A stretch of 11,942 nucleotides of DNA from a virus, in the UHGV virus genome UHGV-1569641, one strand, 5' to 3'. Positions within the stretch are counted from its first letter, which is position 1. The number at the start of each line of letters is the position of its first letter. Shown here one piece after another: positions 2,279-11,000 of the stretch. The translations under genes and the position numbers were made by a program. The notes below the pieces were generated by a model. That model worked only from the letters and a program-made list of their open reading frames with translations. It searched no databases and was not told the origin of the DNA.

Positions 2279-3209
2279 ATTAACCGGCTATGTATGGGAT
2301 GGTTGCGCTGCGTCAGGCATGAAATTATCCAGCGTGGCAATTATGGCCCGCCTGGCTGATTTCAGTAATGACGAAGGTGTGTGCTGGCCATCAATTGAAA
2401 CTATTGCCCGTCAGATTGGCGCGGGGATGAGTACCGTCAGAACGGCTATCGCACGGCTGGAAGCAGAAGGCTGGTTAACGCGTAAGGCGCGTCGCCAGGG
2501 TAACCGCAATGCGTCGAATGTTTATCAGCTTAACGTTGCGAAGCTTCAGGCAGCGGCATTTTCTCAACTGTCAGATTCTGACCCGTCAAAATCTGACGCA
2601 TCAAAATCTGACACGTCAAAATTTGATGCGTCGAAATCTGGCAAAAAAGCGGGTTTTCACCCGTCAGAATCTGGCGGGGATCCGTCAGTAAAATCAAAAC
2701 ATGATCCGTCAGATAAAAAACCTTCTCGTCCGGACGCTTCGCAACCGGACACGCAGACGGCTGAACAGGATTTTTTAACTCGCCATCCTGATGCGGTTGT
2801 ATTCAGCCCTAAAAAGCGCCAGTGGGGAACGCAGGATGATTTGACCTGCGCACAGTGGCTCTGGAAAAAAATCATTGCCCTGTACGAGCAGGCCGCCGAA
2901 TGTGACGGCGAGGTGGTTCGTCCCAAAGAACCGAACTGGACAGCATGGGCAAACGAAATTCGCCTGATGTGTGTGCAGGATGGTCGTACTCACAAACAAA
3001 TCTGCGAGATGTACAGCCGCGTCAGCCGCGATCCGTTCTGGTGCCGTAACGTGCTCAGCCCGTCGAAGTTGCGGGAAAAATGGGATGAGCTTTCCCTGCG
3101 CTTATCGCCGTCCGTCAGCACGCACACAGAAAAACGTGAAGACCCGTACTTCAAAGCCAGTTACGACAACGTGGACTACAGCCAGATCCCGGCAGGATTC
3201 AGGGGGTGA
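2268..3209 (+). CDS. Replication initiation protein, lambda O-like (N-terminal wHTH, iteron-encoded linker, C-terminal domain of unclear family)
   Basis: 313-aa ORF. N-terminal HTH-like DNA-binding region (SIETIARQIGAGMSTVRTAIARLEAEGWL). The middle of the gene holds tandem iterons encoding a low-complexity SKSD-rich linker, the same architecture as lambda O and ori. Confidence 0.75.
   Translation: MSTKLTGYVWDGCAASGMKLSSVAIMARLADFSNDEGVCWPSIETIARQIGAGMSTVRTAIARLEAEGWLTRKARRQGNRNASNVYQLNVAKLQAAAFSQLSDSDPSKSDASKSDTSKFDASKSGKKAGFHPSESGGDPSVKSKHDPSDKKPSRPDASQPDTQTAEQDFLTRHPDAVVFSPKKRQWGTQDDLTCAQWLWKKIIALYEQAAECDGEVVRPKEPNWTAWANEIRLMCVQDGRTHKQICEMYSRVSRDPFWCRNVLSPSKLREKWDELSLRLSPSVSTHTEKREDPYFKASYDNVDYSQIPAGFRG
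2568..2720. repeat. Iteron array (putative phage origin of replication) inside the O-like gene
   Basis: Seen directly: 15-bp tandem units CCGTCAAAATCTGAC (2583-2597), GCATCAAAATCTGAC (2598-2612), ACGTCAAAATTTGAT (2613-2627), GCGTCGAAATCTGGC (2628-2642), preceded by TCAGATTCTGAC (2571-2582). Further CCGTCAGA-type copies at 2661-2675, 2682-2695 and around 2705-2720. Units contain an internal dyad (TCAGA-N-TCTGA); an A-rich stretch follows. Confidence 0.7.
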
Positions 3210-3211
3210 TC

Positions 3212-3700
3212 ATGAGTCTTTTGAATGACGTTCAGAAATTCATTGAAGCCCATCCGGGCTGTACTTCCGGAGACATTGCGGATGCTTTTGCAGGTTACTC
3301 ACGGCAGCGCGTTCTGCAGTCAGCAAGCAAGTTACGTCAGAGTGGGCGTGTGGCTCACCGTTGTGAAGGAGATACACGCAGACATTTCCCGCGCCTGACT
3401 GAGAGAGCGCAGGAGCCGGAACCACAATCTGTTCGTGAAACCAGACCTGTGCGCAATTTCTATGTCGGCACTAACGACCCCCGGGTGATTTTGTGCCTGA
3501 CCCGCCAGGCGGAAGAACTGGAGTCCAGGGGCTTATACCGTCGTGCTGCAACGGTGTGGATGGCGGCATTCCGTGAAAGCCACTCCCAGCCAGAACGAAA
3601 CAATTTTCTGGCGCGTCGTGAACGGTGTTTACGGAAAAGCAGTAAGCGGGCTGCATCAGGTGAAGAGTGGTACCTCTCAGGGAATTACGTGGGGGCTTAA
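3212..3700 (+). CDS. PerC-family-like transcriptional regulator (N-terminal HTH-like region plus C-terminal PerC-like motif)
   Basis: ATG at 3212 preceded by a G-rich RBS; the track start at 3206 is an upstream GTG. C-terminal ELESRGLYRRAATVWMAAF...RRERCLRK resembles the PerC/Pch motif as recalled, not searched. Confidence 0.5.
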   Translation: MSLLNDVQKFIEAHPGCTSGDIADAFAGYSRQRVLQSASKLRQSGRVAHRCEGDTRRHFPRLTERAQEPEPQSVRETRPVRNFYVGTNDPRVILCLTRQAEELESRGLYRRAATVWMAAFRESHSQPERNNFLARRERCLRKSSKRAASGEEWYLSGNYVGA

Positions 3701-4352
3701 TGAGTAATAAATATTGCCAGGCGCTGGTGGAGCTGCGGAACAAACCAGCCCATGAACTGAAGGCAGTGGGCGATCAGTGGCGCACGCCGGACAACATTTT
3801 CTGGGGAATTAACACCCTGTTTGGCCCGTTTGTTCTGGATCTGTTCACTGACGGTGATAACGCCAAATGTGCTGCGTATTACACGGCGGAAGACAACGCG
3901 CTGGCGCATGACTGGTCAGAACGCCTTGCGGAGCTTAAAGGTGCTGCCTTTGGTAATCCCCCATACAGCCGCGCCAGTCAGCATTAGGGGCAATACATCA
4001 CCGGCATGCGTTACATCATGAAGCATGCCAGTGCCATGCGTGATAAAGGCGGGCGCTATGTTTTCCTGATCAAAGCTGCCACCAGCAAGTGTGGTGGCCG
4101 GAAGATGCAGATCATATTGCTTTTATTCGCGGGCGTATTGGTTTTGAACTGCCTGCCTGGTTTATCCCGAAGGATGAGAAGCAGGTGCCGACAGGCGCTT
4201 TCTTCGCTGGTGCTATTGCTGTTTTCGACAAGACCTGGAAGGGACCGGCAATCAGCTACATCGGGCGCGATGAACTTGAGGCATGTGGTGAGGCCTTTCT
4301 GGCGCAGGTTCGCCAGCAGGCAGAAAAACTGGTCAGGGAGATGGCGGCATGA
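3700..4352 (+). pseudogene. Phage Dam-type N6-adenine DNA methyltransferase, disrupted by an in-frame amber codon and a 1-nt frameshift
   Basis: N-terminal part (from ATG 3700) carries the catalytic NPPY motif (FGNPPYS) and ends at TAG 3985-3987. The same frame resumes with MTase-like sequence (KGGRYVFLIKAATSK), then the homologous sequence continues in the -1 frame from about 4089 (WWPEDADHIAFIRGRIGF...) to the stop at 4352, which overlaps the next gene start in ATGA. Confidence 0.6.
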
Positions 4353-4675
4353 CGACGTTAACTCAATGCCAGCAGCAGGTGCTGGATATGCTGATTTCTT
4401 ATCAGAAAGAACGTGGCTTCCCGCCAACCAATCAGGAGGTGGCAACCATGCTGGGATACCGTTCAGTGAATGCAGCGGTGGAGCATCTTCGCGCACTGGA
4501 GAAAAAAGGCGTCATCACGATAAAGCGTGGCGTGGCCCGGGGCATCACGCTTCATACCGCGGTGAAGGACGACGACAGCGAGGCGGTCGGGATTATCCGC
4601 TCACTGCTTGCCGGTGAGGAAAACGCAAGGCTGCGTGCAGCCCACTGGTTACATGAGAGGGGCCTGAAAGTATGA
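4349..4675 (+). CDS. LexA N-terminal DNA-binding-domain-like protein (winged helix; no peptidase domain)
   Basis: 108-aa ORF. LTQCQQQVLDMLISYQKERGFPPTNQEVATMLGYRSVNAAVEHLRALEKKGVI resembles the LexA N-terminal DNA-binding domain (recollection). ATGA-coupled to both neighbouring genes. Confidence 0.6.
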   Translation: MTTLTQCQQQVLDMLISYQKERGFPPTNQEVATMLGYRSVNAAVEHLRALEKKGVITIKRGVARGITLHTAVKDDDSEAVGIIRSLLAGEENARLRAAHWLHERGLKV

Positions 4676-6904: not shown

Positions 6905-7288
6905 ATGCGTGATATTCAGATGGTTCTTGAGCGTTGGGGAGCGTGGGCGGCTAATAATCATGAAGATGTGACCTGGTCGTCCATTGCCGCCGGTTTTAAG
7001 GGATTAATTCCTTCAAAAGTAAAATCTCGCCCGCAATGTTGTGACGATGACGCGATGATCATTTGCGGGTGCATGGCCCGTCTGAAAAAGAACAACAGCG
7101 ATTTGCACGATTTATTAGTAGATTATTATGTAGTCGGTATGACATTCATGTCACTGGCAGGTAAGCATTGCTGCTCTGATGGTTATATCGGGAAAAGGTT
7201 ACAAAAAGCTGAGGGCATAATTGAAGGGATGTTAATGGCATTAGATATCCGGTTAGAGATGGATATCGTTGTTAATAACTCTAATTAA
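6905..7288 (+). CDS. Late-gene antitermination protein Q (Q21/Q82-type)
   Basis: 127 aa from the ATG at 6905 (GGAGAAAG RBS); the track start at 6890 is an upstream TTG. Cys-rich zinc-binding-like motifs ([20 protein letters not shown]). Located just upstream of the late region. Confidence 0.8.
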
Positions 7289-7309
7289 TATGCCAATTGT
7301 TTACTAAAA

Positions 7310-7339
7310 ATTATTAAAAATGGGGCGTTGAGACGCCCC
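7310..7339 (-). terminator. Rho-independent terminator for the porin transcript (minus strand)
   Basis: Stem GGGGCG / CGCCCC (7322-7327 / 7334-7339) with loop TTGAGA; on the minus strand it is followed by A-UUUUU-AAUAAUUUUU. Confidence 0.55.
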
Positions 7340-7358
7340 CAAAAATAAAGGGTAATAT
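7328..7358 (+). promoter_or_regulatory. Candidate late promoter PR' / qut region (approximate)
   Basis: Inference from position (Q-dependent late promoters lie just downstream of Q) plus sigma70-like hexamers TTGAGA (7328-7333) and TAATAT (7353-7358, 19-bp spacer) or GGTAAT (17-bp spacer). Not strongly supported by sequence alone. Confidence 0.3.
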
Positions 7359-7427
7359 ATAACAGAAGGTTTATATAGTTAGAAGCAAGGTTGTGCTTCT
7401 AAAGGAAGTGGCTTGAGGGAGCCACTT

Positions 7428-7467
7428 ATATGTTGGGGAGGCAACGCCTCCCGCAACATATCTTTTT
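7428..7467 (+). terminator. Rho-independent terminator on the plus strand (candidate tR' / end of the Q transcript)
   Basis: Long GC-rich stem (ATATGTTGGGGAGG / CCTCCCGCAACATAT, one bulged G) with 5-nt loop, followed by C-TTTTT. The strand-specific T-tract is on the plus strand only. Lies immediately before the convergent porin stop codon. Confidence 0.6.
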
Positions 7468-7477
7468 CGTAATCAGA

Positions 7478-8560
7478 TTAGAACTGGTAAACCAGACCTA
7501 CAGCAACGATGTCATCAGTATCAATACCAGCTGTTTTGGTAAACTTACTATCGTCAATTAAGTTGATTTTGTAATCAACAAAAGTGGACATGTTTTTATT
7601 AAAGTAGTAAGTAGCACCGACATCGACATACTTGACTAAGTCTCGGTCACCATGAACACCAAGGTCTTTACCTTTTGACTGAAGGTAAGCAACAGATGGG
7701 CGCAGACCGAAGTCAAACTGATATTGTGCTACTGCTTCAAAGTTTTGTGCTTTGTTTGCAATATGGTTATTACCAAAAACGGTCATATTCTGAGTTTCAG
7801 AATATGTGGTAGCCAGATAGATATTGTTCGCATCATATTTCAGGCCTGCAGCCCATACTTCCGCATTTTTGCCGGAGGCATTGAATTTGCTCTTACCATA
7901 GGCGACCTGACCGTCAGTGCGATCTGATTTAGCATAGGTTGCACCCACGCCGAATCCTTCATACTCATAAGTAGTGGAGAAACCGAAACCATCACCATTG
8001 GCTTCAGTTACGTCAGTGCGGTCATTTTTACCCTGATACTGAGCAGCAAAGTTCAGGCCATCGACCAGACCAAAGAAGTCGTTGTTACGATAAGTTGCAA
8101 CACCAGTAGTGCGACCAGTCATGAACACATCTGTTTGGGTCCAGGTATCACCACCGAATTCTGGCAGGACGTCAGTCCACGCACCGATGTCGTATGCTAC
8201 ACCGTAGTTACGGCCGTAATCGATTGAGCCGTAATCACCAAATTTCAGGCCTGCAAATGCAAGACGGGTTTTGTCTTTGGAAGAACCTTGAGATTCAGCG
8301 CGGTTGCCTTTGAATTCATATTCCCACTGACCGAAACCAGTCAGTTGATCGTTGATTTGGGTTTCACCTTTGAAGCCAAGACGGGCATAAGTAGTATCAC
8401 CATCATCTGCATCATTAGAGGAGAAGTAGTGCTTAGCATTAACTTTCCCGTACAGATCCAGCTTGTTACTGTCTTTATTATAAATTTCAGCTGCCTGAGC
8501 AGACATCGCCATCAGTACTGATGCAGCTACAGCAGAAATTGCCACTGTTAATTTTTTCAT
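7478..8560 (-). CDS. nmpC: Outer-membrane general porin, NmpC / Lc / OmpD-type (prophage-encoded, lysogenic-conversion porin)
   Basis: 360-aa ORF with signal peptide ([29 protein letters not shown]), porin motifs ([19 protein letters not shown]) and C-terminal VYQF. Opposite orientation to the flanking phage genes; appears intact. Confidence 0.9.
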
Positions 8561-8988
8561 CGTGAGCCCTTTTTTTTGAACTATTATTAAAAAATGATGT
8601 CACTGCGCGATAAATATTCATCTAATCAATGTGATTATTTCAAGATGTAAGTTTTGGTTTCTCGTTTGATTTGTGAAGTAGATCTCTATTTTTATCTGAA
8701 CTTTTTTCTATCGAATCCTATTCATAGCTCTTGGCTGAATAAAAATAAATCTATTAGCCAATTTATACTAACGGTTGTTATTTATAAGTGCTCTATAATT
8801 TGAAGGTTCAATTTAAATCGGCTAAAAATAACACTGGAAATTATTTGTTGGTTATTTGTTGAGATTTGCTTATGTATTTGTAGTGGTGTTTTCAATACTC
8901 GGTAGCATTCTCGCAAATATCATTTAGTGGTTTACGTACGTAAAAAATTGGTTATGCTGTTAAGAGTGGTTACTTCGTCACACAGCTT
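8561..8988 (-). promoter_or_regulatory. AT-rich upstream regulatory region of the porin gene (promoter not pinned down)
   Basis: About 570 bp of AT-rich non-coding DNA between the porin start and the holin gene. AAGGG RBS about 8 nt upstream of the porin ATG. Contains a tandem GTTATTTGTTG motif at 8840-8861. Confidence 0.35.
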
Positions 8989-9012
8989 AAACCCGCCGTC
9001 GAGCGGGTTTTT
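8989..9012 (+). terminator. Rho-independent terminator-like hairpin on the plus strand, upstream of the lysis cassette
   Basis: AAACCCGC-cgtcga-GCGGGTTT followed by TTTTT cc ATTTTTT on the plus strand; about 120 nt upstream of the holin start. Confidence 0.5.
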
Positions 9013-9133
9013 CCATTTTTTGAGTCTCGATATTAGCTGATAACCCAATACCTGAGTTATTCACTGACTTCGAGTCTGTTACGTTTCGTAGTATTCCCTC
9101 AATTTACACCCGCTTTGTCTGCGAGGTGGGGTT

Positions 9134-9349
9134 ATGAAATCCATGGATAAGTTAACAACGGGTGTCGCCTATGGCACCTCAGCAGGTAGTGCCGGGTACT
9201 GGTTTTTACAGCTGCTAGATAAAGTCACGCCCTCACAGTGGGCGGCAATTGGAGTGCTGGGTAGCCTGGTATTTGGCCTGCTGACGTACCTGACAAACCT
9301 TTATTTCAAGATTAAAGAAGATAAGCGTAAGGCTGCGAGAGGTGAATAA
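9134..9349 (+). CDS. S: Class II holin, S21-type pinholin, with dual-start motif
   Basis: 71 aa, two transmembrane segments, N-terminal MKSMDK (Met1/Met4 dual start typical of S21), C-terminal charged tail [13 protein letters not shown]. Very similar to phage 21 S as recalled. Confidence 0.9.
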
Positions 9350-9846
9350 TGTCGCCATCATTACGCAAGGCTGTAGCAGCTGCTATTGGTGGTGGGGCTG
9401 TTGCCATAGCGTCTGTGCTCATCACTGGTCCGAGTGGTGACGATGGTCTGGAAGGTGTCAGCTACATACCATATAAAGATATTGTTGGTGTATGGACTGT
9501 ATGTCACGGGCATACAGGAAAAGACATCATGCTCGGTAAAACGTATACCAAAGCAGAATGCAAAGCACTCTTGAATAAAGACCTTGCCACTGTCGCCAGA
9601 CAAATTAACCCGTACATCGAAGTCGATATACCGGAAACAACGCGCGGCGCTCTTTACTCATTCGTTTACAACGTGGGTGCTGGCAATTTCAGAACATCGA
9701 CGCTTCTTCGCAAAATAAACCAGGGCGATATCAAAGGCGCATGTGATCAGCTACGGCGCTGGACATACGCTGGCGGTAATCAATGGAAAGGACTGATGAC
9801 TCGCCGTGAGATTGAGCGTGAAGTCTGTTTGTGGGGGAAACAATGA
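9349..9846 (+). CDS. R: SAR endolysin (phage 21 R-type lysozyme, GH24 / T4-lysozyme fold)
   Basis: 165 aa. N-terminal Gly/Ala-rich weakly hydrophobic signal-anchor-release segment ([20 protein letters not shown]), then lysozyme core ([12 protein letters not shown]...VWTVCHG). Start overlaps the holin stop (TAATG). Confidence 0.9.
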
Positions 9847-10301
9847 GCAGAGTAACCGCGATTATCTCCGCTCTGGTTATCTGCATCATCGTCTGCCTGT
9901 CATGGGCTGTTAATCATTACCGTGATAACGCCATTACCTACAAAGCCCAGCGCGACAAAAATGTCAGAGAACTGGAGAAGGCGAACGCCACCATCGCTGA
10001 CATGCGGAAGCGTCAACGTGATGTAGCAGAACTCGATGCAAGATACACAAAGGAGCTTGCTGATGCTAACGCGACTATCGAAAGTCTCCGTGCTGATGTT
10101 TCTGCTGGGCGTAAGCGCCTGCAAGTCGCCGCCACCTGTGCAAAGTCAACGACCGGAGCCAGCGGCATGGGCGATGGAGAAAGCCCAGGACTTACAGCAG
10201 ATGCTGAACTCAATTATTACCGTCTCCGAAGTGGAATCGACAAGATAACCGCGCAGGTTAACTACCTGCAGGAATACATCAGGACGCAATGCCTGAAATA
10301 A
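9843..10301 (+). CDS. Rz: Rz-like inner-membrane spanin (i-spanin)
   Basis: ATG at 9843 overlaps the lysozyme stop (ATGA). N-terminal TM helix ([14 protein letters not shown]) and coiled-coil periplasmic domain. Track start 9831 is an upstream alternative. Confidence 0.8.
10063..10248 (+). CDS. Rz1: Rz1-like outer-membrane lipoprotein spanin (o-spanin), embedded in Rz in the +1 frame
   Basis: ORF fully inside Rz. Lipobox LLGVSAC followed by a Pro-rich mature region ([13 protein letters not shown]). Start chosen at the internal Met ([20 protein letters not shown]) of the 10036-10248 track ORF. Confidence 0.7.
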
Positions 10302-10502: not shown

Positions 10503-11000
10503 ATGAAATCATTAACCCTCTTCAATTAACCAATTCGTATCGGTGAAGATGGCATGATCTGCCTCACTGATATGTGGAAAGCCAGTGGTAAAAGTGAATC
10601 TGAATCGCCTTACCACTACCTGCGAAACAAGCAGACCAAAGAGTTCTTAGCCGAGCTGGAGAAAAACCACGAATCTGTGGTTTTTACTGAGCGCGGTGTA
10701 CACGGTGGAACATATGGCGGGAAGTTTGTTGCTTACGATTATGCGGCTTGGTTAAACCCCGGGTTCAAGTACGCGGCCTATAAAGTCCTCGATGACTACT
10801 TCACCGGAGAACTTCAGCATCGCAACAGCTTAAGTGCGCAGCTCAACATGAAATGTCATGAGTTTGACCAGAAGAAAGACATGGCGAGCTTCTGCGGACA
10901 AGGGCTGGCAGCATGGCGCTATACGAAGCCAGTGTTGGTCGCTGAGATTAACTCCCTGGCTAACCAGCTGCAGATTACGATCCCCGGGCTTCCGGGATGA
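10503..11000 (+). pseudogene. KilA-N domain protein interrupted by an in-frame TAA near the N-terminus (a truncated product from ATG 10554 is possible)
   Basis: ATG at 10503, eight codons (MKSLTLFN), TAA at 10527-10529, then the same frame continues PIRIGEDGMICLTDMWKASGK...EFLAELEK, a KilA-N-type N-terminus. The first downstream ATG is 10554, which is the track ORF 10554-11000. Confidence 0.5.

Follow-up and report, generated by a model that had tools for sequence, protein, structure and literature searches.

An IpeX porin tail between Q and the lysis genes of a lambdoid prophage: probable position of the late promoter and a predicted duplex with ompC

Introduction

A porin gene that stands antisense between the antiterminator gene Q and the lysis genes of a lambdoid prophage raises the question of what the structured 3' untranslated region (3'UTR) of its transcript does, and of where late transcription towards the lysis genes starts. 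Both were investigated for the UHGV virus genome UHGV-1569641, of which a stretch of 11,942 nucleotides (nt), here called the window, was analysed; all coordinates and strands (+ or -) refer to it unless another record is named. By its open reading frames (ORFs) and Pfam matches the window is a segment of a lambdoid prophage that extends from the immunity region to the lysis genes. An original prediction, made from the letters alone, had placed an intact NmpC/Lc-type porin antisense between Q and the holin gene and had noted that its 3'UTR resembles the IpeX arrangement. The gene order was recovered from ORFs and Pfam, with Q at 6905-7288 (+), the porin at 7478-8560 (-) and the lysis cassette holin-lysozyme-Rz at 9134-10301 (+), and the resemblance of the 3'UTR turned out to be identity with the published locus.

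IpeX is described in reviews as a 167-nt RNA of DLP12 and PA-2 that is made as part of the porin transcript and lowers OmpC and OmpF, an effect that the literature assigns to a post-transcriptional step. The locus studied here is a known one, the lambdoid-prophage 'moron' that carries an Lc/NmpC porin and, encoded in the 3'UTR, the small RNA (sRNA) IpeX. In itself it is nothing new but the textbook prophage replacement of host major porins, which likely affects superinfection and permeability. Added here are the placement of the late promoter pR' downstream of the porin and a predicted duplex between IpeX and ompC that is seemingly unreported, as a literature search did not find it. The account as a whole, combining an IpeX locus, a late start past the porin and pairing with ompC, is considered very probable.

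Identity and distribution of the porin tail

The segment 7289-7480 was aligned with the ipeX region of DLP12 and with the sequence that follows lc in phage PA-2 (GenBank J02580.1) and was identical to both in 192 of 192 nt. The DLP12 match is the quuD-nmpC spacer of K-12 strains, including MG1655 at 574340-574531. IpeX of DLP12 and PA-2 has the same position after the porin stop codon, the same strand and the same terminator as the tail studied here. On the strength of this identity the locus is almost certainly the IpeX locus. IpeX would occupy 7311-7477 on the same strand as the porin (-), running from just after the stop codon (7478-7480) to a Rho-independent terminator; its ends were placed by counting the 167 nt given in a review table from the first base after the stop codon, which leads from 7477 to 7311, just past the U-run of the terminator.

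Of 5426 complete E. coli genomes, 2503 carry the segment (80-100% identity); it was also seen in 36 phage records. The IpeX locus thus occurs in nearly half of the complete E. coli genomes, yet it is annotated in neither RefSeq nor Rfam. The RefSeq entry of MG1655 carries no ipeX annotation, and a search of Rfam 15 returned no family at the gathering score and, under permissive conditions (E up to 10), only chance-level matches, none of them to MicC. A search behind the most similar chromosomal porins of Salmonella, Citrobacter, Enterobacter and others gave no IpeX-like tail; all tails of this kind followed porins of E. coli or E. albertii prophages. As the likeness of the plus strand to porin leaders stops at 24 nt, nothing points to an inverted porin 5' end as the origin of IpeX.

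IpeX is similar to the 3'UTR-derived sRNAs of the CpxQ, DapZ and SroC type in being released from the 3' end of an mRNA with which it shares a terminator, and in having an A/U-rich stretch and the terminator U-run at its 3' end; unlike them, it is prophage-borne and targets host core genes. PA-2 is said to use OmpC as its receptor, for which a literature search for PA-2 receptor data found no confirmation. Following the literature, the porin of a lysogen would be transcribed from its own promoter towards Q, IpeX would arise from the 3' end of this transcript, and its post-transcriptional lowering of OmpC and OmpF would lead the lysogen to swap its major porins for the phage porin.

Structure of the tail RNA

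The minus-strand RNA 7480-7300 was predicted to fold into four hairpins plus a terminator hairpin, in agreement with the at least four hairpins claimed beforehand for the ~170-nt 3'UTR. The minimum free energy (MFE) of -64 kcal/mol compares with -32.8 +/- 4.2 in 200 dinucleotide shuffles (z = -7.4), 0 of 200 being as good. Hairpin 1 (7428-7461), of 15 bp with one bulge, appears in the folds of both strands. It is followed on the minus strand by hairpin 2 (7406-7427, 8 bp), hairpin 3 (7379-7402, 9 bp) and hairpin 4 (7356-7377), a weak A/U stem with the 8-nt loop ACCUUCUG, for which the unpaired probability is 0.67-1.0. The porin/IpeX transcript would end at the intrinsic terminator at 7316-7339 (-), with a G+C-rich stem at 7322-7339 and a U-run at 7316-7320; the terminator scan called the stem 7339-7322 followed by AUUUUU, where a minus-strand terminator at 7310-7339 had been expected.

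The fold was then compared among 13 distinct IpeX variants from E. coli prophages and E. albertii, which are 87-100% identical. Across these, 96% of cells were paired versus 36-51% with the partners slid, and the terminator stem was invariant, with every change in the loop. Three one-sided changes, which also bear on hairpin 2, each leave a G-U pair in the RNA of the minus strand, where the plus strand would have an A-C mismatch. Only one compensatory change was found, C-G to U-A in hairpin 1 of E. albertii, and this counts against the structural part of the account in that 210 of 500 shuffles do equally well. The covariation test was not significant because the family is too shallow, so that support for the IpeX structure is mainly thermodynamic.

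On the plus strand, hairpin 1 is followed by CTTTTT (7462-7467), which makes 7428-7467 terminator-like for transcripts leaving Q. The terminator scan gave no call for the plus strand of 7428-7461, because the stem has a bulge. Both this hairpin and a second one at 8989-9012 had been proposed for the plus strand and both exist, the latter being called terminator-like by the scan (8989-9010 plus T-run). The plus-strand face of hairpin 1 may stop transcripts leaving Q, and the last hairpin is a minus-strand terminator. This leads to the question whether the hairpins are merely insulators or terminators between the convergent Q and porin genes, in a tail that has no RNA function in this prophage. 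The palindromes indeed fold on both strands, the plus-strand fold of the IpeX region being structured as well (z = -5.5), and a survey of repetitive extragenic palindromic (REP) elements lists ipeX as REP-containing. On the other hand, two terminators would be enough for such a role, yet five hairpins are kept; the tail is 100% identical while the adjoining porin coding sequence falls to 64-83%; and it is the very sequence for which others have demonstrated a lowering of OmpC and OmpF. A tail that serves for insulation or termination only is therefore regarded as very unlikely.

Predicted pairing of IpeX with the ompC leader

For an IpeX that acts as an RNA, the question is whether it reaches ompC by base pairing. 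By comparison with the ompC leader of K-12, a proposed seed was located at IpeX nt 110-124 and 130-138 (7343-7371, -), complementary to ompC -21 to -7 and -31 to -23, respectively. Between IpeX nt 110-124 (AACCUUCUGUUAUAU) and ompC -21 to -7 (AUAUAACAGAGGGUU), which includes the Shine-Dalgarno sequence GAGGG, 15 contiguous pairs are predicted, 14 of them Watson-Crick and one G-U; a contiguous run of 15 bp was reached in 2 of 300 dinucleotide shuffles. A further 9 pairs, set off by a small internal loop, could form between IpeX nt 130-138 (CCUUUAUUU) and ompC -31 to -23. On ompC, the predicted duplex extends over the Shine-Dalgarno sequence and a portion of the MicC site. IpeX would act in a MicC-like manner: nt 110-138, made up of the loop of hairpin 4 and the single-stranded linker that leads to the terminator, would pair with ompC -31 to -7 and hide the Shine-Dalgarno sequence.

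Predicted energies were compared with those of a validated sRNA and of background sequences. IpeX nt 105-142 and the ompC start region gave -26.4 to -26.7 kcal/mol, the validated 5' end of MicC with the same target -22.5 kcal/mol, the best among 9988 background windows of 65 nt, drawn from 50 kb of MG1655, -21.5 kcal/mol and the best of 43 real translation start regions -17.8 kcal/mol, so that the ompC duplex energy was matched by 0 of 9988 windows and 0 of 43 start regions. The IpeX seed gave -18.8 kcal/mol with the start region of ompF, -16.2 with that of ompN, -15.7 with that of the phage's own porin and -11.4 with that of ompA, the last being at background level. ompA is reportedly unaffected by IpeX. 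For the fixed seed, ompF lies within the top 0.7% of the background, and a shorter pairing of about 10 + 5 bp with the ompF Shine-Dalgarno/AUG region is possible according to the model.

In the reverse test, in which ompC was run against every 40-nt window of both strands of the 11.9-kb window, the IpeX site ranked 1 of 4762. The two sites of nucleation are more accessible than the rest of IpeX (unpaired probability 0.7-1.0), with opening costs of 4.2 and 5.0 kcal/mol, and the cofold MFE contains the duplex (-118.4 versus -100.0 for the monomers). The pairing is kept in 13 of 13 IpeX variants, at -21.6 to -27.5, and the ompC leader varies little, with at least 99% identity in 5365 of 5371 E. 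coli genomes. Three other ways of scoring were tried and rejected: full-length RNAduplex produced meaningless long duplexes, a 24-nt sliding window missed the two-helix site, and a Smith-Waterman-style complementarity score did not discriminate, strict gaps splitting the site and lenient gaps returning noise.

Several points speak against direct pairing. IpeX acts without base pairing to ompC or ompF and lacks complementarity to them, according to reviews, and the original study cited in the reviews (Castillo-Keller et al. 2006, J Bacteriol 188:576) may hold deletion data that exclude nt 110-138. The evidence for pairing is entirely computational, and the seed was chosen after the ompC match had been seen. 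In the reverse scan less than 1 kcal/mol separates the leading ompC site (-26.7) from G+C-rich coding windows (-25.9), the ompF pairing is ordinary in such a scan (about -19 versus a best of -33.6), and the full-length windowed duplex energy is weak against shuffles (7 of 100).

A real but indirect IpeX would fit these points. Such an RNA might sequester a protein or a second RNA, or act as a highly structured competitor, and its complementarity to ompC would be fortuitous; this is the position of the literature, which has no base pairing, and the energy-based statistics for the duplex are only moderate. Less easily reconciled with it are 24 bp that fall exactly on the Shine-Dalgarno sequence and the MicC site, the use of the most accessible parts of IpeX, a predicted energy that beats MicC, and the conservation of the pairing in all variants. 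Indirect action is quite possible, if somewhat doubtful, whereas direct base pairing as the mechanism on ompC is finely balanced in our judgement. The mechanism has been described since 2006 as one without base pairing, and the predicted duplex at the ompC ribosome-binding site makes this point testable.

Comparison with MicC and MicF

Because the predicted IpeX site on ompC overlaps that of MicC and reaches further over the Shine-Dalgarno sequence, the two RNAs were compared. Both seed blocks of MicC, GUUAUAU and CCUUUAUU, are present in IpeX. Beyond these blocks there is no collinear similarity between the two and no Rfam hit, and judged by its sequence IpeX is not a homologue of MicC. MicC is moreover a separate divergent gene, whereas IpeX is 3'UTR-derived. 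MicC and MicF are encoded beside a porin gene and block the translation start of another porin; IpeX also lies beside a porin gene and would work like them, provided that the pairing holds. An 11-nt exact identity, CCAACAUAUAA, was observed between the 3' arm of hairpin 1 (7426-7436, IpeX nt 45-55) and MicC nt 64-74; the CAUAUAA within this region is also part of the ompC target and could pair with the IpeX seed.

In the literature IpeX is classed among the sRNAs that do not depend on Hfq. Tentatively, and just on the doubtful side of an open question, IpeX may be a base-pairing antisense RNA, a phage-evolved MicC mimic in the tail of a porin mRNA, the long duplex of which would explain an Hfq-independent effect on ompC. 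Hfq independence reportedly holds for ompC and not for ompF.

Probable position of the late promoter

Late transcription had originally been predicted to start from a promoter near Q and to run antisense through the porin gene. The promoter scan found no promoter-like site on the plus strand of 7289-7480. Instead, 933W and VT1-Sakai, in which pR' is annotated, could be aligned column for column with 8931-8958 (+), a likely late promoter with a -35 hexamer TTTACG (8931-8936), a 16-nt spacer and a -10 hexamer TATGCT (8953-8958), from which transcription would start near 8965. It is followed by an initial transcribed block at 8965-8985 (+) that is homologous to the 933W qut region, and by the terminator tR' at 8989-9014 (+), which was called by the terminator scan and corresponds in the alignment to the terminator annotated in 933W and in VT1-Sakai. 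tR' is the terminator which Q-modified polymerase must read through. With the features aligned, 8930-9012 is 77% identical to 933W 20665-20746 (77-78% for 933W and VT1-Sakai). The module occurs in 356 phage records and, in the Shiga toxin (Stx) phage records sampled, overlaps the end of Q or lies just past it. In Shigella phage SfII the same module, with the qut-like block 8965-8985 conserved, immediately precedes the holin gene and follows another antisense gene.

Because 8931-9014 is homologous to an annotated pR'-qut-tR' module, late transcription most likely starts past the porin and does not cross it. Transcripts from about 8965 would pass through tR' (8989-9014) into the genes S-R-Rz under the control of Q. 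The position of pR' at 8931-8958, downstream of the porin, is considered probable from this homology. Two findings weigh against it: the hexamers are poor (8 of 12) and below the threshold of the promoter scan, and the pR' of 933W is itself annotated only as putative.

The alternative is that the late promoter lies next to Q, and that Q-modified polymerase reads through 7428-7467, continues antisense over the porin and then passes 8989-9012. The pR' of the 933W type does overlap the end of Q, and both plus-strand terminator-like hairpins are present. Yet the pR'-qut-tR' homologue was found at 8931-9014 and not after Q, and the similarity to the 933W Q gene stops at nt 348 of 399, with nothing promoter-like after it. 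A promoter next to Q is therefore unlikely. With a start past the porin, the predicted place of the 8989-9012 terminator on the late path is retained, as it would be read through as tR', whereas 7428-7467 falls off that path. Early (pR) transcripts that read through into the porin would be a candidate source of antisense transcription all the same.

Q belongs to the same Pfam family as that of the Stx phages H-19B, 933W and VT1-Sakai, and its DNA is 75-81% identical to Stx-phage Q genes over most of its length (the first 348 nt of 399). In these phages the end of Q and the pR'-qut-tR' module overlap; in the window the two are 1.64 kb apart, the module being downstream and the porin-IpeX unit standing between them. 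The unit thus appears to fill a cargo slot between Q and pR', where late transcription would leave its expression untouched. This revises the map of the late region: the slot that holds porin and IpeX here is filled by other phages with other antisense cargo. Such cargo was seen in Lambda_2E9 (L086, 2050-2574), where an antisense Blc lipocalin follows a QuuD-like Q in the equivalent place, in SfII (L087, 121-1143), where an antisense 340-residue hypothetical protein precedes the pR'-like module, and in 434B (L089, 2094-3053), where an LpxR-like lipid A deacylase follows a Q fragment; wherever it is named, the antisense cargo of other lambdoid phages is outer-membrane-related.

The 21 nt at 8965-8985 are identical in PA-2, the 1986 record of which labels them as a second CRP site. 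The label may be mistaken; alternatively, the site could serve two purposes. A pairing of the late leader 9006-9058 (+, just past tR') with the ompA start region, at -31.3 kcal/mol, was dropped as probably due to chance, since it joins poly-U to poly-A and is matched in the background.

The porin gene and its alleles

The porin (7478-8560, -) is intact, with 360 residues and a signal peptide. Its PF00267 Porin_1 match (E 1.9e-151) spans residues 29-360 in an unbroken reading frame and places it by sequence as a member of the Lc/NmpC phage porins. It is intact as in PA-2, whereas the DLP12 porin of K-12 is split by IS5. The allele differs from those of DLP12 and PA-2, with 91% amino acid identity to Lc and 91% to intact NmpC. 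It is 5 residues shorter than the NmpC/Lc allele used for comparison; the N-terminal 180 residues are almost identical to Lc, and the differences lie mostly in the C-terminal half. The exact porin sequence sits in a cluster of 2741 members, some of which are named 'outer membrane porin protein LC', and the same gene order, with the porin between Q and the lysis genes, was found in 36 phage records. In many E. coli RefSeq genomes the prophage porin is auto-annotated as 'porin OmpC' (gene ompC), and in phage records as 'OmpD'. Annotation-based counts of ompC copies are inflated by this misnaming.

Nucleotide identity to a strain that carries NmpC drops to 64-83% within the 3' half of the porin gene and is abruptly back at 100% in the 100-bp block past the stop codon. 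The mosaic boundary is sharp: 7470-8269 is 64-88% identical to the NmpC-carrying strain, and 7270-7469, with the IpeX tail, 100%. On the other side, in the flank 8270-9169, the block 8870-9069 with pR' and tR' is again 100% identical, and the other upstream region 98-99%. This mosaic pattern suggests that porin alleles are exchanged between conserved flanks. The regulatory region of the porin itself extends over 8561-8930 and includes a CRP-site sequence at 8669-8689, an exact match to the PA-2 feature at 1363-1383 of J02580.1, which is annotated upstream of lc.

Other genes of the window

The left part of the window encodes, by Pfam, a cI-like repressor, cro-like and cII-like proteins, replication genes, RusA, KilA-N and DUF968. 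The Q antiterminator is of the QuuD/H-19B/933W type (PF06530, E 9.8e-54). Its ORF starts mechanically at TTG 6890 and more likely at ATG 6905, which gives 127 residues, and it is 98.8% identical in nucleotide sequence to K-12 quuD. Only distant kinship was found to solved Q21 structures (E 7e-8), so that promoter data for Q21 are not transferable. A spacer of 573 bp, A+T-rich, separates the porin from the holin. The lysis cassette consists of an S21-type (phage-21-type) holin at 9134-9349 (PF04971), a lysozyme at 9349-9846 (PF00959) and Rz at 9831-10301 (PF03245), all on the plus strand.

Four further genes are cargo-like. A protein with a PerC-like activator domain is encoded at 3206-3700 and a Dam methyltransferase fragment, covering only profile positions 1-73 of 169, at 3667-3987; a small protein with a LexA DNA-binding domain lies at 4349-4675, and a second KilA-N/ORF11CD3 protein follows Rz at 10554-11000.

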